A stretch of 64,000 nt of DNA from the IMG/VR virus record IMGVR_UViG_3300029822_000003, positions 1 to 64,000 of that record. One strand, given 5' to 3'. The notes under the pieces are model-generated. The model did no database searches, had not been told where the DNA came from, and saw nothing but the letters and a program-made list of their open reading frames with translations. Position 1 is the first letter of the stretch, and every line of letters starts with the position of its first letter. A program made the translations under genes and the position numbers. Positions 5,089 through 63,898 of this stretch are shown piece after piece. Origin of the DNA: a virus.

Positions 5089-7179
5089 TTAAGCCACCGC
5101 CTTTTGAACATAATAATCAAATGTAATATCTGCTGTCTCTGCTACTGTACTTGTGATTGTAAAACTACCATTAGAACTATCAACAGTCCATATTCCTTGA
5201 GGCTTAGTAGAAGATGTAATAGCAATTGTTACAAGGCTATTTACTGTACAAAATGTATCTGTAAAACTTTGAGAAGTCCCTCTTGTAGTAAAAGTACTAC
5301 TAGCACTTTTAAATAATGCTGAGCCTGTAGCAACACTTAAAGCTCCATTACTATCTATGCTTATTCCTGTGCCTTGTTTTACATGGCCCAGTTGGGATTG
5401 TGTCGCAATTTCTGCCTTATGTGAATCAAGTGAAGCTTCTCCTAGCATTAAAGCACTAAATATATTCTTAAATGTTAGTTGTATATCTATATAATCTGTA
5501 TAAATTGTACTTGGTGTTGTTCCATCACTAGCATCTGTATAAGCTAATAAATATATAAAACCGTCTGGTTGAATCACTACTGTTGGAGTTAGAATACTTT
5601 TTACCAATGTTGGTGTTGCATAACTGAAAGGTGAAGAAGAGTATTCTTGCCAAGAAGAACTACCATAATAAGCCATCCTATTTTTATTTCCACTAGGACA
5701 AGAGCCATACCCATACCAATTACAAATAATACTAGCTATATTATTTTTTAACCATGTAACTTTATCTGCTGTAGTAGAACCTGGTATAGTTCCATATTTT
5801 CTTTCTACTATAGAAATTAAATCAAACTCAAATAGATGCTGAGAGATAGCACTACTTATACTAGTAGAAGTGCCTAAAGTACTGCCATCTAATTTTTCTA
5901 TAGTTGCAATACCTGCATCATTTGTACCTATTTCTATTACAAATTCATTAGGTAAAAGTAATCTTGTTTGATTATCATTTCCAGCTGTACGTTTTGCTAT
6001 ATTAGGATTTGCTACAACACTTCCTGTTACTTTTCCAGTAAAATCTGAAATTGTAACTCCTGTTACTGCATTATTAGCACCTGTAGATATAGCTGTATCT
6101 GATTCAGTTTTTGTATAAACATCAACTAATCCATATCCATCTCTAGTAGTAGGGTTAGTACCTGCTGTTACCCTGCCTTTTGCATCTGTAGTTACACTCC
6201 TATAAGTTCCTGCTGTTCCAGTATCTTTTAATATAGTAGGTAAAGTTACGTTACTATCACCTTTAAAATCTACGTTTCCTGTTGCATCTCCAGATAAAGC
6301 TATATTTCTTGCAGTTTGAAGTTTGGCGGCTTGTTCTGCTATTAAATTTGTTTGCACAGTTCCATTATTTACAGGAGTAAAAGAAGATGAAGGTTGTATT
6401 TCAAAATTTACGCCATTATAAATAGTTCTATATATTTTATTTTGTTGTAAGAATCCGCTTACTAACGGAGAACCATTATAAGTTAAATTTTTAGCACCTA
6501 ATCCATTTACGTTTAATGTACACGCTCCTGTATTTGCTATGTTAGGTATTATGTCTACATTTAATCCACTTGTATAACTTGCCACCGTAGAAATAGAAGC
6601 ACCATAAGTATTATTACTACCTGTTAAAATAGCTAATTTAACTGTTTCTGTTTTTAGACTAGCTATAGAAGTTTCATCTATATCTAACCTATTTTCTATC
6701 GCTGTAATATCTGCTATAGTTTCAGCTAAATCTGCAGAAGGATTATTCATAAGAAATTCCGTTCCATCATAAGTCATAGTTGAGTACTTATTTTTTATCA
6801 AATCATTTGCTTGAAGATCGACTATGTTCCCGCTATTATCCGTCTTTTTTATAGCTACTGCACCTGCACCACTTATGTTTATTGTACTTGTTCCTGTGTT
6901 GGTATTAGCAGGTTTAAACATTATTGTTAGTCCTTCATAGTATGTAGTTAAGGCGGATATATCTGTAGTATAAGCAGTAGTAGAAGTGCTGGTGTCTTTC
7001 AACTTGAAAATAACTTCATCTGCTATTGCATTTAAATTACTTGCAGATAAAGGTGTACCCGGTGTAGAAACTGTTCCCGGGTTTGGAATAATTTGCCATG
7101 TTTCATTCCCTAAGTCGCTTAAATTATATCTATCTGGATATTGAGCTACTTGGTCACTAAATATAATTCTTCTAGCCAT
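5089..7179 (-). CDS. Tail fibre protein
   Basis: 696 aa, S/T/G-rich; repeated ANTG..T.N.NG.GA units; GTYRSVTTDAKGRVTAG fibre motif; follows baseplate genes. Confidence 0.85.
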   Translation of the reverse strand: MARRIIFSDQVAQYPDRYNLSDLGNETWQIIPNPGTVSTPGTPLSASNLNAIADEVIFKLKDTSTSTTAYTTDISALTTYYEGLTIMFKPANTNTGTSTINISGAGAVAIKKTDNSGNIVDLQANDLIKNKYSTMTYDGTEFLMNNPSADLAETIADITAIENRLDIDETSIASLKTETVKLAILTGSNNTYGASISTVASYTSGLNVDIIPNIANTGACTLNVNGLGAKNLTYNGSPLVSGFLQQNKIYRTIYNGVNFEIQPSSSFTPVNNGTVQTNLIAEQAAKLQTARNIALSGDATGNVDFKGDSNVTLPTILKDTGTAGTYRSVTTDAKGRVTAGTNPTTRDGYGLVDVYTKTESDTAISTGANNAVTGVTISDFTGKVTGSVVANPNIAKRTAGNDNQTRLLLPNEFVIEIGTNDAGIATIEKLDGSTLGTSTSISSAISQHLFEFDLISIVERKYGTIPGSTTADKVTWLKNNIASIICNWYGYGSCPSGNKNRMAYYGSSSWQEYSSSPFSYATPTLVKSILTPTVVIQPDGFIYLLAYTDASDGTTPSTIYTDYIDIQLTFKNIFSALMLGEASLDSHKAEIATQSQLGHVKQGTGISIDSNGALSVATGSALFKSASSTFTTRGTSQSFTDTFCTVNSLVTIAITSSTKPQGIWTVDSSNGSFTITSTVAETADITFDYYVQKAVA

Positions 7180-8192: not shown

Positions 8193-9365
8193 CTATATCA
8201 CCTCAATTTTAGCTAATTCTGTTACTGCAATCTTGTCTGAATCTATTGCTATATTAGTTGCATTGTATGTTGTTCCATCTGTACTTAAAGTTACAGACAT
8301 ATCATTTAGCCCTGCTAATCTTAAATTAGATATAGAGTTCATAATTTTATAAATTACAACACTTTCGCCTACTCTTATGCTTTCTATGTAAGATAAAACT
8401 GCATTTTTAATTTGCGTATTCCCGTCTGCTGGATAGCTACTATCTGTCGTAACATCAATTTTAATCCATATAGGAACTTGAACTGGTCTTGAAAAATTAA
8501 TTTGATGTACTATGCCTTGACTGTCTGTAATATTTATCGAGGTTGTACCATATGTATTAATTCCCCCTGCGGTTTTATTGAATATAGCTTGTGCTACTGC
8601 CGTACTATCTCCACCATTTACAAGAGCATATATTGAGTGCGGTGGTATCCCATCTACTGTAGAATCTGTTTTATTTTGTTTTACGACACAATCTGTAACT
8701 GCTGTTACCTTTAAAACATTTGCTTTTATTGCATCCACAGTTGAACCGCTTCCACTTGCGGTACTTTCATTATATCTAGTTCTGAAATTAACATCGCTTT
8801 CCTCATCTTGGCCGCCACTTGTGCCACTTACATTTGTAACAGAATTTAAGCCTATTAATGGACTTATTATTTTAGTTATTGTATTTTCTGACACATTCCC
8901 ACTAGCACCAGCATTTACAGCTTCTATATTTATATCTACATATCCACTAGAAGATATTATCTTGCTTTCAGTTGTAACAAAAACAATATTTGTATCTGTA
9001 CTAATTTGAAAGCTTGTGTCTATTACCGTTCCTGCTATACCTGTAAATCTAGCTATCCCAGTGGCCTTAGTTGCTTGCTTTCTACTTATACCTATATATT
9101 TGCCTGCATAGCTTAAAGGAATGCCCTCTGCGTAGGCTGGGTTAGGTATATAAAAGTCTTGTTCTGCTAACTCCCATATTTCAGCCATAAGTTCCATAAA
9201 TGGCATTGAGAATTGATACGTAGGGTCATTATTTGTAAAATCTATATTAGCTCCGAATTTATCTGCACTTTTTAAACTTGATTCTACATAATCTATAATT
9301 GAATTTAAATCTCTCTTATTGAATCCTGTAGTTGTTATTCCATATCCACTGGCTAATTTATCCAA
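8193..9365 (-). CDS. Baseplate J/gp47-like protein
   Basis: ATG...F.G..GT, A...G..GN and GG.DEESD..FR.R motifs. Confidence 0.9.
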   Translation of the reverse strand: MDKLASGYGITTTGFNKRDLNSIIDYVESSLKSADKFGANIDFTNNDPTYQFSMPFMELMAEIWELAEQDFYIPNPAYAEGIPLSYAGKYIGISRKQATKATGIARFTGIAGTVIDTSFQISTDTNIVFVTTESKIISSSGYVDINIEAVNAGASGNVSENTITKIISPLIGLNSVTNVSGTSGGQDEESDVNFRTRYNESTASGSGSTVDAIKANVLKVTAVTDCVVKQNKTDSTVDGIPPHSIYALVNGGDSTAVAQAIFNKTAGGINTYGTTSINITDSQGIVHQINFSRPVQVPIWIKIDVTTDSSYPADGNTQIKNAVLSYIESIRVGESVVIYKIMNSISNLRLAGLNDMSVTLSTDGTTYNATNIAIDSDKIAVTELAKIEVI

Positions 9366-16085: not shown

Positions 16086-16245
16086 CCGTTGCCAAAACCT
16101 TATAAAACTCTATAAAGCTTGTTTAATTCCCTGTTCCTCGTGTCCGATTTTGTAATCCTAAAACACTACTTTCGTTTATATAACACTCCAAGGGCTTAAA
16201 TTCCCATACAACGCATGGTACATATTAGTAGTATCTTTTAAGTGA
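16086..16245 (-). ncRNA. IS607-type omegaRNA / right end downstream of tnpB
   Basis: About 160 nt non-coding tract after tnpB (ATGTACCATGCGTTGTATGGGAATTTAAGCCCTTGGAG...) ending TTTTGGCAACGG. Confidence 0.65.
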
Positions 16246-54589: not shown

Positions 54590-55372
54590 TTAAATATAAT
54601 CTTCTTTCATAATTCTTTCACTATCTCCAGTAATCATAAAATATCTAGGTTGTGATACCTGTAAGAAATAAACTATATCTCCGTCATTATTCTCTGGTAA
54701 ATCTTCAAAGTATTCTTCTACTGTTTCTGTAAACATATCTAAATCAACGCTACTGCCTATTAATTTGTTTACTGCATCATTTATAAACTTCACATATTTC
54801 TCTCTAATTCGCTTATGCCTTTTATTTCTAAACATATTTCTAATTTCTAAATAAGATTTTATATAAGGTTCTACCTCATCAGACCAGCCGATCTTGTATA
54901 AAGATTGTAAACTCTCAGTCTCGTTATTTTTAGTTTTATTTAATTCAGTATAGTTAGTAGGCATATTATTCCTGTTTAGTTCGGCATTATTTGCCTCTAC
55001 TGAGCGGTATATTTTGCCGTTCATAGTGTTTTCAATGTCTATAGGTATACCAACATATATTTTATTTGGTTTTGTAAGCCCTTGACGTACTTCTTTTATG
55101 AGTTCATATTCAGCCAATTCTTTCATGTATTTTCTTACGCTTCTTTCACTTATATTTAAATCTTGTGCCATTTTATCTCTTGCGTAATATATAAATACGT
55201 TTCCACTTTCATCTACCCAATTATTCTTTATGCTTAAACTTACTCTATCTTTTAAAAACGAATATACAACTTTAGCTCCTAAAGACATATCTTTATATGC
55301 ATTTGTAAATAAAACTTTAGGTATTTGGTAGAAAGACATATTTGTTACTTCATTTATTTTTATATATTGCAT
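54590..55372 (-). CDS. repA: RepA_N-family replication initiator
   Basis: FYQIPKVLF, AKVVYS.LKDR..LS.KN.WVDE.G.VFIYY, RQGLTKPNKIY. Confidence 0.88.
   Translation of the reverse strand: MQYIKINEVTNMSFYQIPKVLFTNAYKDMSLGAKVVYSFLKDRVSLSIKNNWVDESGNVFIYYARDKMAQDLNISERSVRKYMKELAEYELIKEVRQGLTKPNKIYVGIPIDIENTMNGKIYRSVEANNAELNRNNMPTNYTELNKTKNNETESLQSLYKIGWSDEVEPYIKSYLEIRNMFRNKRHKRIREKYVKFINDAVNKLIGSSVDLDMFTETVEEYFEDLPENNDGDIVYFLQVSQPRYFMITGDSERIMKEDYI
54960..55018. promoter_or_regulatory. Putative origin iterons inside repA
   Basis: GGCATATTATTCC 54960, GGCATTATTTGCC 54983, GGTATATTTTGCC 55006; 23-bp period, in the linker after the RepA_N domain. Confidence 0.6.
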
Positions 55373-57589: not shown

Positions 57590-60010
57590 TTAATCATCTA
57601 TTTCTTTATGCAGCCAATTACTTTTATATCTTCCATTTTCTATACTCCAATTCATAATATCTTTATCTTCTGATATTTCTATACTTCCACATCTTTGCTC
57701 TAACATTTGTGCACATTCATCATGTTCTCTTTCTCTAGCTAAATTACATCCATGTACTTGTGATGAATTAAAGTTATTAATAAAAGCAATTTTGTCTCTA
57801 TTGTAATCTATAAGAAATATTCTATCCTCATCCATCAATATAATATCTCTGCAATTAAGGGTGTGTTCTTTTCCATGTATATCTCTTATTAATATTTGTT
57901 CATCATCAAATATTTTTTTCTTCTCTTTTACTTTTACAATTCCAGTGCTAATTAATATTTCCATAAAAGTTTTATTTCTAATAATATCCTGTCCTACTAC
58001 ATACATATCTATCATACATTATCGCTCCCGTTTTATATTATCTATTTTCTTTTGCAAATCATATTTTTTAATCAATTCTTTCCAAGGCATCCCGTCTGCT
58101 ATATCATTATACATTTTTACCTCTATAAAAGCATTGTCAGCTAATACCGATAGTGCATATTTAATTCTTAATTTATATTCTGGACACGTTTCTCTAAAAT
58201 CAACGCTTTTGCAATTCTTAGCTTGACATTTTCCACCTGGAAACATCCACGGAGTTGAAAAGAATTCGTCACAAGTATTACACGTTTTCTCTATTTTAAG
58301 TAATTTGTTTGGGTCTTCCATTTACATATCACTCCCAAGAATTTCATTATCAGTTCTTTCATTAAGAGCTTTAGCCACTATTCTAAAATACTCTTGTACA
58401 TTTTCTTCTTCCATAATTTCTTCTTTTGTAGGTTTACGCCCTAGACATTTAATTTTTAATGGTATATTCATTTATATATCACTCCTTCTTTATAACTTTT
58501 CCTATTGTTCCAGGTTTATATTTAATTACATCTATACCGCTATCTGTAGAGTTTTATTGTATAGATTCAACGCATTGTCTTTGTTTATGTTCCAGCCTTT
58601 ACAATCAAATAGTTCTAAGTATTTAGTGAAAGCTTTCTTTGATTTCAGTGTGAATATGCTATTAAATAAAGGCCATAATCCTTTCCATTCATCAATAAAC
58701 CCGCAAGCAAATGGAGGATTTATCCAATAAGATTCATACCCTATTAGTTCATACAGATAAAGTACATCATTATAGGTTAAATCTTTTCCCCAGTTTTCTT
58801 TTATCCATTGTAAAGTATGATGTTCTTCCATGCAATCAACTCCTTAATATTTAGATTTTCTTCTCTTTATTTCAAACTTTTTAGCTGTCTTATTTAAATA
58901 TCTTTGTGTTTGAATGTACCTATATATTCTTTTAAATATGTTCAATTATAGTCAGCTCCTATTTATTATTAAGTACATTATAATATATTCCTACCGCTTT
59001 TAATTCTGCTACGTTGTCACATTTTAGTAGTATATTTTTATCTGCACCAATTTTTAATGAAGTTTCAATAGTTGAAAGTATGTCGTTAGGTGTTAGTTCT
59101 CCATCTTTATGCGATATTCTCAATGCTAAAATTTTTAATTCTTCATCTATGGTAATGTTATTCTCTGCTAATTTTCTTCCACATTTAGGGCAATACTCAA
59201 TTTCTCCTGAGGATTCACCGGCATAATAGGAATTTGATGTAAGGTAATACGTTATTATGCCTTTAATATATTCTTTTTCTAAGTAAGTTTCAACGTCACA
59301 ATCATCTATTATTGGCTCTCCTCTTGATGTATCTTCATCTATAATGTCTTTAAAATCGCAGTATTTACACATTTAATCAACTCCTATCTATAATTCTTTT
59401 AGTCCGCGTTCTCGCCTTACTTTATTTATAGAAGTGCCTTTATATTCTTCTACACTTTCATTAAGCTTATTGGCTATTTCTAGTTCATCATTATAATTTA
59501 AAAGTCTCCACCTTTTTATGCACTTTGATTTTAAATATTCCTTTTTTACGTCTGGACCGATACTAGGATTATTTTCTTTAGCTTTCATATACCATTCTAA
59601 AGAATCATTCTGTAGTCTAATTATAAGTGCATCTATGCTTTCAACATCTATGGCTATAATCTTACTTTCACTATTAAGCAATTCAGCCTTTACTAGCATA
59701 ATATCAGCTCCTTTTACATCCAACTATTGAATATTAATATAGAATCATCATCTAGTATAACAGGGTTTACATCTAAAGCTTTGCTTAATTGAAATATGTC
59801 TACAAGATAATCCAATTCTATAGTTCCTACAAATACAATGTTATCTTCATCAATATAATTGAATATTTTGCCTTTCTTATGGAAATACGTATCTCTTGTC
59901 ATTGATTCTTCAAAACCGTATTTATTTAACACAGGTCTTATGCTATCAAGTTTTTCTTTAGAATCTGCCATGTATATTTCTACTTTCATTCTAATCTCTC
60001 CTTTAATCAT
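57590..60010 (-). other. Hypothetical genes 57590-58015, 58019-58321, 58532-58831, 58959-59372, 59388-59723, 59714-60010
   Basis: Co-directional ORFs with SD sequences; several CxxC. Confidence 0.6.
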
Positions 60011-60085
60011 ATTAATATTTTACAAGAATTACAAGTTATCTTTTTCATATTTTTCAAAGAACTTTTTTAGCTTCGTTTCGGATAT

Positions 60086-60114
60086 TAAAATAAGGTAAGC
60101 ACATTGCCTACCTT
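60086..60114 (-). terminator. Intrinsic terminator closing the ncRNA locus
   Basis: AAGGTAGGCA-ATG-TGCTTACCTT-ATTTT on the minus strand. Confidence 0.65.
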
Positions 60115-60130
60115 ATTAGGGGTTATCTAT

Positions 60131-60690
60131 TGGGGGATGGGATATTTACAACCCTATCTGAGTTGTTGGCGGCCATATTTATCGGCTACAGCCAAACCAT
60201 AAAAAATCAATAGAAAGGAGTTAAAAATATGAAATCTCAATCATTTATCTGTCTAGTGGTGGATAGAGTAGGACTTGAACCTACAGTGTTTTTTATGTAA
60301 GTGATTTACAGTCACCCTTCTTCAGCCAATTTGAATATCTATCCATATAGTGGGGAATCGAACCCCAAAAAGAAATTGGTTACAAGCTTAAAACAAACCC
60401 TTGTTTTTGCTTATCTGGGGCGGTAAAGGATAGCCTTAATTATCGCTTATCTCCTACAAACATATCCTGATTATGTTATATAGTTCTTATACGATTCCTT
60501 TATCCTTATTTTGTTTATATATTCAATTTAGCTTATCAGGTCACTAAATATCTTATATAAGTTTATCTTTTCATCTATGCCTAAAGACCGCTGGGACTAG
60601 ATTTATTTTAATTCCCTCTAGTTACAGGAATTGTTAAGTCTCATGGTGGCGGTTGCATTTTTATTTTACGTGTCCTGCAACCACAGGCAC
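60131..60690 (-). ncRNA. Pseudoknot-CCA RNA array, distal cluster (units at 60131, 60167, 60416, 60592, 60644)
   Basis: Each unit: two interleaved stems, A-rich loop, 3' CCA. Confidence 0.7.
60257..60344 (-). tRNA. tRNA-Tyr (GUA)
   Basis: Acceptor GGATAGA/TCTATCC + A + CCA; anticodon loop CT-GTA-AA; long variable region; T arm GTAGG-TTCAAGT-CCTAC. Confidence 0.9.
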
Positions 60691-60706
60691 AGCTTTTGAA
60701 ATCATC

Positions 60707-61347
60707 TTATCTTTCGTCCTTTTGAATTATTGCACGCATTTGTGCTACGACTTTTACTTCTTCTATTACATCGTCTAAAAGTCTAATTGGTGCTTTGTGT
60801 TCTGCAAGTATATCGCATATTTCTTCTGCTATTTCAGTAGTATCTATTGCATTCATTGTTTCTCACCTCAAACTATTCTTTGTCTTTAGTGTTTCTGATA
60901 AAATATTTTTATGTTGTTGCATTGTATGCTTACTATTATGTGGCCTTTTCTGTCAACTAAGTTGTACATAAAAGGTACACCACTTTGTGATGTAAAAGGT
61001 ATGATGAATCTTATTTCTTTGTCTTGGAAAGTATCCCCTACTGTGTATTCTTTTGCATCATCACATACTATTTTTCTTATGTATCTTAATACTTCGGTAC
61101 TATCTTCCATAGTTTTCATTTTATACCTCCACTTTTTATCATATGTATTAGAGATTTAAACTGTTGATCTCACTTATATAGTTATTTCTTCTTCATTTAT
61201 TATTTCACCAGTAGTTAATTCAAGCTTAAAGTCGACGATTTTTTCACTAGTTTCTTTTAATTCATCAACTAATGAATTAAATTTTTTTAGCAATAGTTCC
61301 AATTCAGCAGAGTTAGATTTTGTTATTATTCTTTTTATTTTAATCAC
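60707..61347 (-). other. Three small ORFs inside the RNA locus (60707-60856, 60886-61119, 61174-61347)
   Basis: Each has a GAGG or GGGGGTG SD; 49, 77 and 57 aa. Confidence 0.6.
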
Positions 61348-61401
61348 CCCCTGTAACTTGTTTTTTTATCTTTAGTTTGTATTTATCTTTGCTTATGTAT
61401 T

Positions 61402-61484
61402 AGAGTGGGTGAAGATTTGCACTTCACATGTTACAACCAACACCATATATGCTACCTTGCCGCATAATTGCAAGTTCCCCACTT
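61402..61484 (-). ncRNA. tRNA-like element (non-canonical)
   Basis: AGTGGG/CCCACT acceptor-like stem, CTTGC/GCAAG arm, TGAAG-TGCAAAT-CTTCA T-like arm; no CCA. Confidence 0.45.
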
Positions 61485-61530
61485 TCAACACGAGTTGTAG
61501 AAGCTGTTGGAAAGTGTAATTGCCCGCTCC

Positions 61531-61993
61531 TGGTATGCAATTACTTTAGTGTGCAACTGCATAAATCTCACTTTACTCGTTGAAATATAATAATTGACTA
61601 TATATAAAAATAAAGGGTGGTATAAGATTGCTTTTATAGTGTGCAACCTTAGTAAGTATCACTTCCAAAATCACATTTCAGGAGGAACTGAAAATCAATC
61701 TTGATATTAATGCTGGTTGTATGCAGTTTCTTTTTTAGTGTGAAGCTGTAATAAATATCACTGTGAACAAATTCAAATAAAAAATCAATAAAAGGAGTAT
61801 GTTATAACGTGAACAACGCTAAAAGCTGTATGCCTTTCGGCTGGTGACCAGCTATTATTTATAGTGCTCCTGGTCAGTAACACTCATTAAGATTATAGGA
61901 GACTTTATACAAGTTTGAAATTTGCATTGTTATTGCTTTTATTAAGGCAATTTGCCTTTGGTGACCGTATTTATAGGCTACGGTCAAACCCTT
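61531..61993 (-). ncRNA. Pseudoknot-CCA RNA array, proximal cluster (units at 61531, 61618, 61714, 61842, 61928, 61959)
   Basis: Three related AGTG..CACT units, two UGACC..UAUAAAU..GGUCA units and one weak unit. Confidence 0.75.
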
Positions 61994-62090
61994 TCTAAAT
62001 TGGAAGATTAGAAAACGAACAAAATTAAAATCTACACAGTATCCCTGCTGTGATTACCACCAAAAATTAATTATCTTATCTACAATTATT

Positions 62091-62132
62091 ATTGTACTCG
62101 ATATTGATGAGTTATGCAATAGATATCGAGCA
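62091..62132 (-). promoter_or_regulatory. sigmaA promoter for the RNA locus, with two operator copies
   Basis: TTGCAT-17-TACAAT; TACTCGATAT 62095-62104 and ATATCGAGCA 62123-62132. Confidence 0.7.
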
Positions 62133-62329
62133 AAAATAAAATATTAGTACAAGCTTTTTTATTTTTTAAAATATTACTTGAATCCAGTTTTATTTATTGT
62201 TCGTGTTTTTAGACTTTTGCAGAGTGAAATTTTGTATTAGCATATACGGTAAAATCCATTTCACTCGAAAATATACGAACATTATTACATTATTTTGATT
62301 TATTGTTTATGTTTTACTGTATATTTTGA

Positions 62330-62357
62330 ACTTCGCTAAAACATTATTTAGCGAACT
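62330..62357. other. 28-bp palindromic recombinase-type site, copy 3
   Basis: ACTTCGCTAAA-ACATTA-TTTAGCGAACT, touching the terL stop codon. Confidence 0.7.
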
Positions 62358-63898
62358 TAGTCTGGGATTGTGATGCTAATATTATTTGGTTTTCTAAACC
62401 TTTCACAGCCATAACGCAAACTGTCGCACGCATCATCATTGACCTTAACCGGTTTTGGCAGTCTTTCCCCTGTCTTCTTATCTTTCTCCCATTGATAGGA
62501 TTCTAACTCATTCTTTAGTCCAATACAGCTTTTATCTACATACATACCACGCTCTTGTATCCATTCTATCCCTTCCATTACACTATTAGTTCCCTTAGTG
62601 CAAGCCCTAATTCCATTAATTCCTTGTCTTTTCATTTCTTCTATTGCTTCAGGTCTTGCATTGTCTGCGTATATTTTTATGTCATTGTAAGCTGGGCCTA
62701 TAGAATTTTGTATCTCCCTTTCTATGTACTTCCAGTTTATATCCCGCTCATATACTTTTTCTCTCTGAAATATTTCTAGGTTACATGCTTTTGCGTATTT
62801 TTTTTTAACCAAATAAAATAGTTGCATACTTTTTGATATATCTGAACCACTATCTATATATTTTTTTAACTTCTCAATTTCTTCTTTTACCCAAGGAAAT
62901 ATCTTTTTTAACTCATTTGCTATATCTATGGCTGTGAGCTTAGGCTTATACAATTCTTTTAGAATATATAAATCATCATCCTTTATGCCTATCTGATGGA
63001 ATGCTGTATGATGTTCCCATCCAAAATCCAATCCATAGGAAATATCGTCATACCAAGATAAATCTTTGTTGCAGTCTATTACTTCCCAATTTTCATATAT
63101 AAGTTCACCAAGTACGCCCCAGTTTCCGTTGCACTGTACACCATATTTTCTAGGGTTGCGGAGTTTCATTTTATTTCTAAGTTTTTCATCTTTATACTGG
63201 CCATTATAATATTTGTTGTCTCTCCAAGTGGTTTTTAATATAAACGTGTTCTCTGGTTCCAATACATTATCTTTCCATATTTCCTCACTCATATCTATTC
63301 CATTTTGAAAGAAGTATGTACGAATCCAATGCGTTTTAAATATAGGGTTAAACATCATAAATACTTTTAATTCCTTACCCCAGGCATGGTTGCCTGGCGG
63401 TGTGCCCCTTAATCTATCTTGTATATCTTCCAAGTCTTCTTGTGTAAAGTCTGTTACTTCTTCTAGTACAAGTACATTTACATTATCAATACCCTTCAGC
63501 TTTTCTGGATTATCATATCCGGTCATTCTTATAATAGAGCCACTAGCAAATTTAATATGTTTTAGAGTTCTGTTATAAGTAAAGTCTCTGCCCTCTACAA
63601 GACCATGGCTTGAATGAATATTTTTAAAATACTTTGTCATTATATTTAATATAGGAATTTCAACTGTGTTTTTTAATGTGGTTGCATACTTTCTAGCTAT
63701 GAGAATATCAAAAGTAGAATGGCATACACACATTTCAATTAGTTTGGACCATATGCTGAATGACTTACTGGAACCTGTGCCCCCATAGAATATATTATAT
63801 TTCTTAGGGATGTACCCAGGTTCAAACATAAATCTATATTTTTCGTTTACATAAGGCCGCCGCAGCCTAATCTTCTTTTTTATCTTCATCAGTACCAC
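62357..63898 (-). CDS. terL: Terminase large subunit (PBSX/SPP1-like)
   Basis: YGGTGSSKS, LEEVT, FNP, GLDFG, YADNARP, DDACDSLRY. Confidence 0.93.
   Translation of the reverse strand: MVLMKIKKKIRLRRPYVNEKYRFMFEPGYIPKKYNIFYGGTGSSKSFSIWSKLIEMCVCHSTFDILIARKYATTLKNTVEIPILNIMTKYFKNIHSSHGLVEGRDFTYNRTLKHIKFASGSIIRMTGYDNPEKLKGIDNVNVLVLEEVTDFTQEDLEDIQDRLRGTPPGNHAWGKELKVFMMFNPIFKTHWIRTYFFQNGIDMSEEIWKDNVLEPENTFILKTTWRDNKYYNGQYKDEKLRNKMKLRNPRKYGVQCNGNWGVLGELIYENWEVIDCNKDLSWYDDISYGLDFGWEHHTAFHQIGIKDDDLYILKELYKPKLTAIDIANELKKIFPWVKEEIEKLKKYIDSGSDISKSMQLFYLVKKKYAKACNLEIFQREKVYERDINWKYIEREIQNSIGPAYNDIKIYADNARPEAIEEMKRQGINGIRACTKGTNSVMEGIEWIQERGMYVDKSCIGLKNELESYQWEKDKKTGERLPKPVKVNDDACDSLRYGCERFRKPNNISITIPD

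Follow-up and report, generated by a model that had tools for sequence, protein, structure and literature searches.

[quoted passage not shown] RNase P or RNase Z is also recruited to make RNA ends by partial mimics of a tRNA such as the t-elements of plant mitochondria and the mascRNA of MALAT1, which are derived from a cloverleaf and belong to a eukaryotic or organellar setting. Phages, too, have RNAs that are not tRNAs yet share a transcript or a mode of processing with them (species 1 and 2 RNAs of T4, M3 RNA of phi80 and C4 RNA of P1/P7); these are single RNAs of about 80-140 nt, mostly of unknown function. The type III antitoxins CptI and ToxI are short pseudoknots of the H type, in which loop 1 is very short and an A-rich loop lies in the minor groove of stem 1; they are excised by their toxin, with a cyclic phosphate and no CCA, from contiguous, near-identical tandem repeats beside the toxin gene. 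In the 45-nt pseudoknot of CptI from Eubacterium rectale (Clostridia), loop 1 is a single nucleotide and the A-rich loop, which has a U kink, is 9 nt long. An H-type pseudoknot with a 3' RCCA becomes a substrate of bacterial RNase P of both type A and type B; it is cleaved in loop 1, preferentially with U 5' of the cut, and is arranged like the TYMV structure (Kosek et al. 2025, PMC12710915). The substrate described there is a biotin aptamer with a 3' RCCA tag, synthetic and poorly cleaved; pseudoknot substrates were cut far less well than hairpin substrates, and whether RNase P acts on pseudoknots in vivo was left open (PMC12710915).

The window analysed here comprises 64,000 nt of viral DNA (positions 1 to 64,000 of IMG/VR record IMGVR_UViG_3300029822_000003). 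Its minus strand carries, at 61991-60167, an array of eight CCA-ended H-type pseudoknots, seven of them well formed and one a decayed copy (Table 1). Each well-formed unit has a stem 1 and a stem 2, an A-rich loop 3, and CCA directly after stem 2. Units are 31-48 nt long and separated by spacers of 12-85 nt; CU-rich spacers precede units in the window, and five consecutive units have no ORF between them. The units and tRNA-Tyr share one transcription unit, and the CCA of unit 5 abuts the 5' G of a T-arm-bearing, tRNA-like RNA at 61530-61401. As read from the sequence, the array would form a promoter-to-terminator unit of about 2 kb on one strand, with both the promoter and the terminator putative. 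Neither was listed by a simple consensus scanner (the first promoter hexamer has three of six positional matches), and both are visible by eye where the original prediction had placed them. Identical promoter hexamers and spacing precede the array of the related contig L002, TTGACA-17-TATAAT stands at the equivalent place in L008, and the arrays of both contigs end in an equivalent hairpin and U-tract.

Table 1. Features of the pseudoknot-CCA array (positions in the whole stretch).
Feature	Position	Strand	Description
Putative sigma-70-type promoter of array	62091..62119	-	TTGCAT-17-TACAAT, by eye
Unit 1, type 1 pseudoknot-CCA	61959..61991	-	stem 1 4-5 bp, stem 2 7-8 bp, loop 3 AUAAA; covariance model (CM) R1 51.5 bits; covariation supported in type-1 alignment A1
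Hairpin abutting CCA of unit 1	61944..61958	-	folding, -6.1 kcal/mol
Unit 2, type 3-like pseudoknot-CCA	61842..61884	-	stem 1 6 bp, stem 2 6-7 bp, loop 3 11 nt
GAAA-loop hairpin after unit 2	61841-61832	-	
Unit 3, decayed type 2 copy	61714..61762	-	AGUG/CACU stem 1 kept, stem 2 two mismatches, 3' end CAACCA
Unit 4, type 2 pseudoknot-CCA	61618..61663	-	stem 1 AGUG/CACU, loop 1 5 nt, stem 2 11 bp, one bulge
Unit 5, type 2 pseudoknot-CCA	61531..61572	-	
Unit 6, type 3 pseudoknot-CCA	60644..60691	-	stem 1 7 bp, one mismatch; stem 2 7-9 bp; loop 3 11 nt; 3' end CCACCA
Unit 7, type 3 pseudoknot-CCA	60592..60632	-	stem 1 7 bp, loop 1 3 nt, stem 2 6 bp, loop 3 8 nt, C then CCA
tRNA-Tyr(GUA), encoded CCA, within array	60257..60344	-	ARAGORN; Rfam RF00005 55.2 bits
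Unit 8, type 1 pseudoknot-CCA, final array unit	60167..60199	-	CM R1 45.9 bits; type-1 covariation
Hairpin after unit 8	60166-60148	-	
Putative intrinsic terminator of array	60087..60114	-	10-bp stem, 3-nt loop, U-rich tail; by eye

The original prediction had counted about 11 diverse H-type pseudoknots of conserved topology on this strand. Seven good units and the degenerate unit 3 (MFE -2.5, z 0.14; an intact orthologue lies at 5085-5129 of L002) were found where they had been placed, and the remaining three candidates fell away: that at 60416 has no significant fold (z 0.87), that at 60131 is merely the hairpin after unit 8 with a C-rich tract, and nothing was found at 61928 beyond a post-CCA hairpin. 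Orthologues with compensatory changes were found for unit 2 in L002 and L033, unit 6 has orthologues in L002, L018, L008, L034 and L036, and a terminal unit occupies the position equivalent to that of unit 8 in L002, L018, L020, L033 and L008.

The fold was evaluated with a strict descriptor that required perfect stems and CCA 0-1 nt after stem 2. The minus strand of 60100-62050 gave six matches with a score of at least 24, four of them at 28 or above, and the plus strand of the same region none; 300 dinucleotide shuffles gave means of 0.11 and 0.02 matches and maxima of 2 and 1 at the two thresholds. When both strands of the 93-kb genome were scanned, four of the six matches scoring at least 28 fell within these 1.9 kb. 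Stem 2 of unit 8 contains three G-U pairs, and a U-G pair is present in stem 1 of 11 of 12 type-1 units; on the opposite strand these would be A-C mismatches, so the RNA strand is the minus strand, in agreement with the predicted orientation.

Covariation was assessed with units from at least 20 viral contigs, including proviruses of Clostridium kluyveri and C. tyrobutyricum; a fourth unit type is among them. In type 1 (12 sequences), 98.6% of cells were paired, versus 23-46% with the partners slid, and two-sided changes were seen in six of eight stem-2 pairs and one of four stem-1 pairs. In type 3 (also 12 sequences) the corresponding values were 92% versus 30-41%, with two-sided changes in five of seven stem-2 pairs and four of seven stem-1 pairs; in type 2, six of 11 stem-2 pairs changed on both sides. 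Covariation had been proposed as a check on both stems, and types 1 and 3 support both. Judged from these alignments, both stems are real, backed by compensatory changes in related phages and prophages. The length of loop 1 rises with that of stem 2 (Spearman 0.55, p 0.002, 28 units), as the geometry of a pseudoknot requires. In an alternative, nested fold of type 1 the GG of stem 1 pairs with the CC of CCA, and the two invariant G-C pairs of this type may belong to that modelled fold instead.

Sequence features at the 3' side were counted in 28 units of four sequence-unrelated types, with stems assigned by greedy decomposition. CCA is present in all 28 and is preceded by A or G (RCCA) in 23; U stands just 5' of stem 2 in 24 units, and stem 2 starts with G in 21. 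With the -1:73 pair excluded, stem 2 has 6-7 bp in 20 units, 9-10 bp in six and 5 bp in two. The U at -1 of type 1 never covaries, though its partner is A, G or C, which points to a constraint on sequence rather than on pairing. This U(-1)/G(+1)/R73-CCA pattern is the signature of the tRNA acceptor stem and of the published RNase P pseudoknot substrates; a pseudoknot, a 3' RCCA, a single-stranded loop 1 and U at -1, the features of the latter (PMC12710915), were found in the units. A tRNA acceptor end (7-bp stem, discriminator base, CCA) is reproduced in part, and the D, anticodon and T arms and the T-loop of a cloverleaf are absent from these RNAs of two stems only. A hairpin abuts the CCA in 17 of the 28 units, compared with 4.2% of 1977 other CCA sites in the genome.

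The units differ from the TLS of plant viruses in that they have no elbow or anticodon part, are encoded in DNA and lie within a transcript, in up to about ten different copies that are mostly followed by a hairpin. The synthetic RNase P substrate shares the small pseudoknot and the RCCA, and the phage units, on their sequence, would be natural candidates for such a substrate. Unlike the t-elements and mascRNA, they are pseudoknots; unlike the phage RNAs of T4, phi80 and P1/P7, they form arrays of minimal pseudoknots. With CptI they share hosts among the Clostridia, in addition to the fold; in contrast to ToxI and CptI, they are all different and spaced apart, they were not detected as tandem repeats, and no toxin gene was found nearby. 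A minimal, repeated, DNA-encoded mimic of the tRNA end in bacteriophages was not found in Rfam 15 or in the literature searched.

Relatives place the units in several contexts. Among phages with terminases at least 89% identical, the unit number varies from 2 to about 10, and the proviruses carry a single unit at the end of an operon. The unit comes after the stop codon of an ORF in L034, and after an abiF-motif hairpin in L053, L057 and L067. A trailer of about 45 nt, a conserved hairpin, follows the CCA of tRNA-Tyr in L008, and almost the same sequence stands behind the type-1 unit of L034 and L036; unit and tRNA therefore occupy one slot and are exchangeable. The CCA ends are a tRNA-like feature, in line with the original prediction, and the units lie among tRNA-Tyr and tRNA-like elements. 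The abiF motif (RF03085) adjoins CCA units in L002 (37.2 bits), L053 (35.7 bits) and L008 (34.7 bits), as a hairpin separate from the unit; no Abi_2 gene was found alongside it in these three contigs, and the motif is thus an orphan there. The abiF-like hairpin of L057 is below the Rfam threshold. The RNA of this motif was shown to be an RNA antitoxin (bioRxiv 10.1101/2025.04.15.648962).

Rfam 15, searched with gathering thresholds and at E <= 10, contains no family that matches the units, and the check proposed with the original prediction therefore identified no already described family. ARAGORN found no tRNA in the array except tRNA-Tyr, and in the region 59900-62300 Tandem Repeats Finder found no tandem array and the abiF model (RF03085) no match even at E <= 10. 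When the array was compared by BLAST with 50,697 phage records, only the piece with tRNA-Tyr matched, in Fusobacterium phages (76%); a Fusobacterium host was dropped in favour of Clostridium, since nothing else matched those phages. A 191-nt stretch of L057 (abiF-like hairpin, type-4 unit and trailer) had no match in the same 50,697 records. In bacterial genomes, the type-1 covariance model found no unit in 149 Clostridiaceae genomes (about 47 candidates scored per genome, hence of low sensitivity), nor did the type-4 pattern in 401 sampled Clostridia genomes, and in these small samples no locus that pairs units with a toxin was seen. The 38 phage ORFs scanned had no domain of a CCA-adding enzyme, RNA ligase, reverse transcriptase or toxin, and no tRNA enzyme was encoded among the scanned ORFs of at least 130 aa; host enzymes would therefore have to act. 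ORFs flanking and inside the array matched no toxin family, the phage genome had no match to Abi_2, and ToxN_toxin (PF13958) matched neither this genome nor the control genomes. A preQ1-I-like riboswitch has the same topology and was rejected (stem 2 is far too long and Rfam gave no match), a self-cleaving ribozyme was set aside because no family matched, and tRNA 3' fragments of the attP type because the units have no T-loop; a packaging RNA was considered and also set aside. On the plus strand, mini-ORFs behind AGGAG-like complements of the CU-rich motifs were likewise set aside, as they have 2-24 codons and are not conserved.

The reading that we favour, tentatively and at somewhat less than an even chance, is that the units are minimal mimics of the tRNA end that serve as processing and end-capping modules. 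Stem 2, usually of 6-7 bp with a G start, would stand in for the acceptor stem together with the purine discriminator and CCA; stem 1, formed by the upstream strand paired into the loop of stem 2 and stacked under stem 2, would take the place of the T stem, an arrangement also seen in the acceptor-arm pseudoknot of the TYMV structure. Such modules would be portable, placed on a long non-coding transcript in the phage and on the 3' end of an operon in prophages. Host RNase P would be expected to cleave within loop 1, separating the conserved U(-1) from G(+1), and the tRNA 3'-end machinery to define and maintain the CCA end; the transcript would in this way yield separate, stable small RNAs and hairpins with a CCA end. 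Portability is favoured by the differing cargo: the stop codon of an ORF in L034, the abiF-motif hairpin in L053, L057 and L067, and the CU-rich spacers of the window. Several points argue against parts of this reading, however, among them the poor cleavage of the published pseudoknot substrates and the nested fold of type 1. Stem 2 of type 2 has 9-11 bp and the summed stems, by the greedy decomposition, 10-17 bp rather than a fixed 12, so that the units do not follow a strict tRNA ruler. Where a hairpin directly follows CCA, exonucleases would have difficulty in trimming the 3' end, and we know of no enzyme in Clostridia that cuts exactly between CCA and a following hairpin. Five consecutive units free of ORFs exceed what the punctuation of genes would need, and so wide a range of unit numbers, 2 to about 10, is more often a mark of accessory or counter-defence loci.

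The same acceptor-stem and CCA signature would fit equally well if the units acted as decoys that soak up defence effectors directed against the acceptor end of tRNAs, and so spared the real tRNAs, a reading that we regard as unlikely. Possible targets would be toxSAS pyrophosphokinases (CapRel, FaRel2), MenT/AbiEii nucleotidyltransferases and Cas12a3. Cas12a3 cleaves a minimal acceptor-stem hairpin with a 3' CCA and tolerates changes in the stem provided CCA is present (PMC12851939), and FaRel2 is reported to read the acceptor stem, MenT to extend acceptor ends. Varied stems under one strong, putative promoter, in a copy number that differs between close relatives, fit a locus engaged in an arms race, and the orphan abiF antitoxin motif in the arrays of relatives suggests that the locus may collect counter-defence RNAs. 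However, no defence system is linked to the units by context, competition for substrate with the very large tRNA pool would be inefficient against multi-turnover enzymes, a single unit at the end of a provirus operon looks cis-acting, and there would be no free 3' end if the post-CCA hairpin stayed on. In a broader form, which we also think unlikely, if slightly less so, the locus would be an RNA counter-defence island in which tRNA-end mimics, orphan abiF-type hairpins and CU-rich RNAs resembling the 16S tail are assembled on one transcript, and the units would be tight-binding decoys, either for defence toxins that read the tRNA acceptor end or for Abi toxins under the control of a pseudoknot.

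Quite improbable, in our judgement, is the main idea of the original prediction, a role as pseudo-antitoxins that silence the toxin of RNA-controlled abortive-infection systems, either of type III (e.g. CptIN) or AbiF-like. Phage phiTE reportedly has a pseudo-ToxI that binds and silences the toxin. CptI has the architecture of the type 3 units (short loop 1, A-rich loop), and the resemblance noted in the original prediction holds at the level of motifs: a CptI repeat taken from a primer in PMC4627078 contains UGACC, UAUAAAU and GGUC in this order, and unit 1 shares these three motifs. The antitoxin motif abiF next to CCA units in L002, L008 and L053, lacking an Abi_2 gene, would also suit such a role. 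The predicted link to type III toxins nevertheless found no support, since the spaced units form no tandem repeats, the shared GACC/GGUC letters are not conserved in a family whose stem 2 covaries, no Rfam antitoxin family matched even at E <= 10, and no known type III system accounts for the invariant CCA, U(-1) and R73; an A-rich loop 3 is a general property of H-type pseudoknots and of AT-rich genomes, and the small genome samples yielded no bacterial locus with a unit and a toxin. Compact pseudoknots of the H type with an A-rich loop 3 often serve as exonuclease blocks and aptamers, and the units could on this ground be structural stabilisers (e.g. blocks to RNase J or a 3' exonuclease) or pseudoknots that bind a protein or ligand, unrelated to tRNA enzymes, with CCA serving another contact such as pairing with GG; the nested fold, which sequesters CCA in type 1, would agree with this. 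We hold this to be the least probable of the readings: CCA is constant across four sequence-unrelated types, without the tRNA machinery it is difficult to account for the U(-1)/G(+1)/R73 pattern or for the exchange with tRNA-Tyr, and no riboswitch family in Rfam matches.

If the units are natural substrates of RNase P or of the CCA enzyme, the in vivo question raised for pseudoknots in PMC12710915 would be answered, and the phage would obtain many stable small RNAs from one promoter-to-terminator transcript by cleavage, with no terminators needed to separate them; as processing substrates they would also provide a ready-made tag of 31-48 nt for synthetic biology in Gram-positive bacteria. If they are decoys, they would be a new class of RNA-based counter-defence, and a counter-defence island would hold the first natural nucleic-acid mimics of the tRNA end to act as anti-immunity weapons. 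The phage is of Clostridium type, with unit-bearing proviruses in C. kluyveri (L034 and L036) and C. tyrobutyricum (L057); the closest isolated phages have a terminase of only about 31% identity. The family now numbers about 30 sequences of four types, and with these sequences and the hosts of the C. kluyveri and C. tyrobutyricum proviruses identified, direct experiments are possible.

The array is encoded on the minus strand, directly downstream of the large terminase gene, and is followed by a run of small ORFs. Its units are H-type pseudoknots: a short loop 1 separates the 5' arms of stem 1 and stem 2, the 3' arm of stem 1 comes next, and the A-rich loop 3 then leads into the 3' arm of stem 2 and CCA. 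A strict descriptor scan of the minus strand at 60100-62050 returned 6 elements scoring at least 24 and 4 scoring at least 28, against means of 0.11 and 0.02 in 300 dinucleotide-preserving shuffles. The plus strand of the same interval gave no element, and four of the six best genome-wide descriptor matches (both strands) fell inside this 1.9 kb. A relaxed scan, in which one mismatch or bulge was tolerated, added units 4 and 6. About 11 pseudoknot-CCA units had originally been predicted; seven are sound, unit 3 is only a decayed copy, and three others (60131, 60416 and 61928) were dropped, being either sequences that fold no better than shuffled ones or merely a hairpin after a real unit. The coordinates are collected in the table.

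Features of the array, its surroundings and related loci (window coordinates unless a locus is named)
Feature	Location	Strand	Remarks
Unit 1	61991-61959	-	
Unit 2	61884-61842	-	
Unit 3	61762-61714	-	decayed
Unit 4	61663-61618	-	
Unit 5	61572-61531	-	
Unit 6	60691-60644	-	
Unit 7	60632-60592	-	
Unit 8	60199-60167	-	
tRNA-like RNA	61401-61530	-	roughly 130 nt; 6-bp T-arm-like hairpin, acceptor-like closing helix, no encoded CCA
Small ORF, 57 aa	61174-61347	-	within array; no family match
Small ORF, 77 aa	60886-61119	-	within array; no family match
Small ORF, 49 aa	60707-60856	-	within array; no family match
Hairpin with T-arm	60345-60413	-	long hairpin, canonical T-arm (GGGGUUCGAUUCCCC); abuts tRNA-Tyr on its upstream side
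tRNA-Tyr	60344-60257	-	within array
C-rich tract	60131-60145	-	CCCAUCCCCCA
Large terminase gene	62357-63898		
RepA_N replication initiator	54590-55372		
RAGATH-18 RNA (RF03064)	16127-16194	-	65.8 bits
abiF motif hairpin (RF03085)	L002:5167-5203		37.2 bits (gathering score 37)
abiF motif hairpin (RF03085)	L008:8421-8457		34.7 bits (gathering score 37)
abiF motif hairpin (RF03085)	L053:4116-4146		35.7 bits (gathering score 37)
NACHT/SNaCT5 STAND NTPase gene	L034:5956-7938	-	660 aa

Arrays of 2 (L020) to about 10 units were found at the same place and strand in the terminase-linked viral loci L002, L008, L016, L018, L019, L020 and L033, as mosaics of shared and private blocks. L008 and L040 are one and the same contig, and a metagenome contig contributes an identical stretch as L017. 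Unit carriers were reached via the terminase, one type-1 pattern and a conserved trailer; searches of bacterial genomes covered small samples at low sensitivity. The units sort into four types without sequence relation. Type 1 (31-33 nt) has a stem 1 of NGGU/GCCN and a stem 2 of 7-8 bp; type 2 has AGUG/CACU, a loop 1 of 5-8 nt and a stem 2 of 9-11 bp; type 3 has a stem 1 of 6-7 bp, a stem 2 of 6-9 bp and a loop 3 of 8-13 nt; type 4, discovered by searching IMG/VR with the trailer, has ACCU/GGGU and a 7-bp stem 2, and occurs in about ten proviruses and phages.

In the type 1 alignment 98.6% of cells were paired, against 23-46% with partners slid, and in type 3 92% against 30-41%; alignment rows mix orthologues and paralogues, so that shuffle counts on them are not probabilities. 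Both-sided changes were present in 6 of the 8 stem-2 pairs of type 1, in 4/7 stem-1 and 5/7 stem-2 pairs of type 3, and in 6 of 11 stem-2 pairs of type 2, stem 1 of which is without variation. In stem 1 of type 1 one of the four pairs changed on both sides (AU, UG, GU, UA, never a mismatch) and two G-C pairs are invariant. These two G can alternatively pair with the two C of CCA, and the covarying outer pair is the only argument for the pseudoknot over this nested fold in type 1. Controls with slid partners, and stem-1 sequences that differ completely from type to type, leave little room for doubt about the pseudoknot. The predicted array of H-type pseudoknots, varied in sequence and constant in topology, is thus borne out, with covariation in both stems of types 1 and 3. 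A chance origin of the units was ruled out by the shuffle statistics and covariation.

The acceptor stem of a bacterial pre-tRNA has a U at position -1, a 7-bp helix starting with G, a purine and CCA. Over 28 distinct units, the base just 5' of stem 2, U(-1), was U in 24, stem 2 opened with G in 21, the base before CCA (R73) was A in 17 and G in 6, and CCA was present in all. In type 1, U(-1) is invariant opposite A, G or C whereas the other stem-2 pairs covary. Leaving the U:R pair aside, stem 2 measured 6-7 bp in 20/28 units; a longer stem 2 went with a longer loop 1 (rho 0.55, p 0.002), and loop 3 followed stem 1 in a weaker trend (rho 0.32, p 0.10), in part owing to over-extension of stem 1 by the greedy decomposition. 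A hairpin, in several cases GAAA-looped, started at most 2 bases after CCA in 17 of the 28, compared with 4.2% of 1977 other CCA sites in the genome.

Kosek et al. 2025 (PMC12710915) showed that adding a 3' RCCA turns a small H-type pseudoknot into a substrate of bacterial RNase P of types A and B, cut in loop 1 with U favoured 5' of the cut, and that the TYMV tRNA-like structure is laid out in the same way. Judged by sequence, the phage units agree with such substrates in every criterion of sequence and structure and are candidate substrates. With tRNA-like structures and RNase P pseudoknot substrates they belong as a variant; what is new is the minimal form of 31-48 nt, its arrangement in an array and its division into four types. 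No family in Rfam 15 matched the units, originally proposed as a candidate new phage RNA system, and literature searches found no phage pseudoknot-CCA modules. A preprint on bacterial tRNA mimics (October 2026) describes larger RNAs with T-loop-like elbows, and its text contains neither 'CCA' nor 'phage'.

Fold, conservation, signature and modularity of the units are shown by the analysis. Our preferred reading, which we hold at a little short of an even chance, is that they are portable tRNA-end modules cut by RNase P. The enzyme would cut between U(-1) and the first base of stem 2, G(+1), leaving a downstream fragment with its 5' end buried in stem 2 and an upstream RNA that would be trimmed back to its own structure. 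CCA would mark a tRNA-like 3' boundary, and RNase P processing of the tRNA-like RNA after unit 5 would give that unit a CCA-3'OH. All of these enzymatic steps, and the biological pay-off, we infer.

The surroundings of the units fit this reading. The array includes tRNA-Tyr, and the CCA of unit 5 abuts the first G of the T-arm-bearing tRNA-like RNA. A 45-nt trailer after the tRNA-Tyr CCA of L008 is almost letter-identical to that after a type-1 unit in C. kluyveri proviruses, so unit and tRNA act as equivalents when modules are exchanged. The conserved trailer, a GAAA-loop hairpin (GCGG-GAAA-CCG) and an AU-rich stretch, follows the CCA of a type-1 unit, a type-4 unit or tRNA-Tyr in about 15 of 25 viral contigs with its 16-nt pattern (L034, L036, L040 and about 12 other IMG/VR contigs); matches outside this context look like chance. 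In proviruses one or two units close an operon, lying 7 nt past a stop codon in L034 and, in L053, L057 and L058, flanked by a late-regulator or helicase gene and the terminase-operon promoter. The cargo ahead of units varies (ORFs, an abiF-motif hairpin, CU-rich spacers), and in the clade of the window the units have multiplied into an array.

The units could instead be decoys for toxins that act on the tRNA acceptor end, which we consider unlikely. Cas12a3 cleaves a minimal acceptor hairpin if CCA is present (PMC12851939). The acceptor end is likewise recognised by toxSAS and MenT enzymes, and variable copy number and stem diversity would suit an arms race; a substrate decoy, however, would compete with the entire tRNA pool, and nothing ties the locus to such toxin systems. 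Pseudo-antitoxins are more doubtful still. The CptI repeat, as deduced from a published primer (PMC4627078), does carry UGACC, UAUAAAU and GGUC as originally stated; CptI itself, 45 nt long, is an H-type pseudoknot in which loop 1 is a single nucleotide and the A-rich loop has a U kink. The letters common to CptI and a unit are nevertheless not kept across the family, the units do not form tandem repeats, and type III biology offers no role for CCA, U(-1) and R73.

The abiF motif also speaks for pseudo-antitoxins: its hairpins sit within the arrays of relatives or immediately ahead of type-4 units, and no Abi_2 gene was found in the L002, L008 and L053 records or in G000. As the abiF-motif RNA RCd22 is an experimentally shown antitoxin of AbiF (bioRxiv 10.1101/2025.04.15.648962), these hairpins are candidate orphan pseudo-antitoxins. 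That the units are tRNA-independent stabilisers or aptamers seems the least probable reading.

The virus record is 93,171 bp long and complete by CheckV's rating, and its first 64 kb make up the window. Among the phage's genes are those for a GH25 lysin that has a PG_binding_1 domain, a sigma factor, a primase-helicase and several HNH endonucleases. A scan of 38 ORFs revealed no domain of a tRNA-related enzyme, a reverse transcriptase or a toxin. Its host is very probably Clostridium, since its close relatives come from fermentation metagenomes and more distant unit carriers are proviruses of Clostridium kluyveri and C. tyrobutyricum. A Fusobacterium link, which rested only on a 76% match of the tRNA-Tyr gene, was discarded. 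The RAGATH-18 RNA scored well over its gathering score. In the C. kluyveri provirus L034 the NTPase gene, likely a prophage-borne defence gene, follows the two units and a terminator.

The CCA-adding enzyme tags unstable tRNAs with CCACCA; unit 6 ends in CCACCA (60644-60649, minus) and its orthologues in a single CCA. The stretch 60647-60896 (49-aa ORF and the unit after it) is 84% identical to L002, and 60257-60418, tRNA-Tyr included, is 92.6% identical to L008, in which the T-arm upstream of tRNA-Tyr runs into GCCA, so that the T-arm hairpin there is tailed by RCCA. For the tRNA-like RNA, a hairpin whose UUAUGCGG loop is conserved and whose stem covaries turns up again, in far larger versions, in L002 (about 5130-6190) and in L008 (about 8415-8770), and no Rfam family is matched. 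Units are preceded, at a distance of 17-38 nt, by CUCCU(U) tracts at 61901, 61797, 61684 and 60220 (minus); the array holds four where genome frequency predicts 0.73, and type-4 units of L052, L053, L057 and L058 also have such tracts upstream. The copy at 60220 reads CUCCUUUCUA, which resembles the Gram-positive 16S rRNA 3' tail; an sRNA seed and a 16S-tail mimic are possibilities for these tracts. The C-rich tract, which separates the terminator from the hairpin of the last unit and has a similar counterpart at the same place in L002, resembles the C-rich seed regions of Gram-positive small RNAs.
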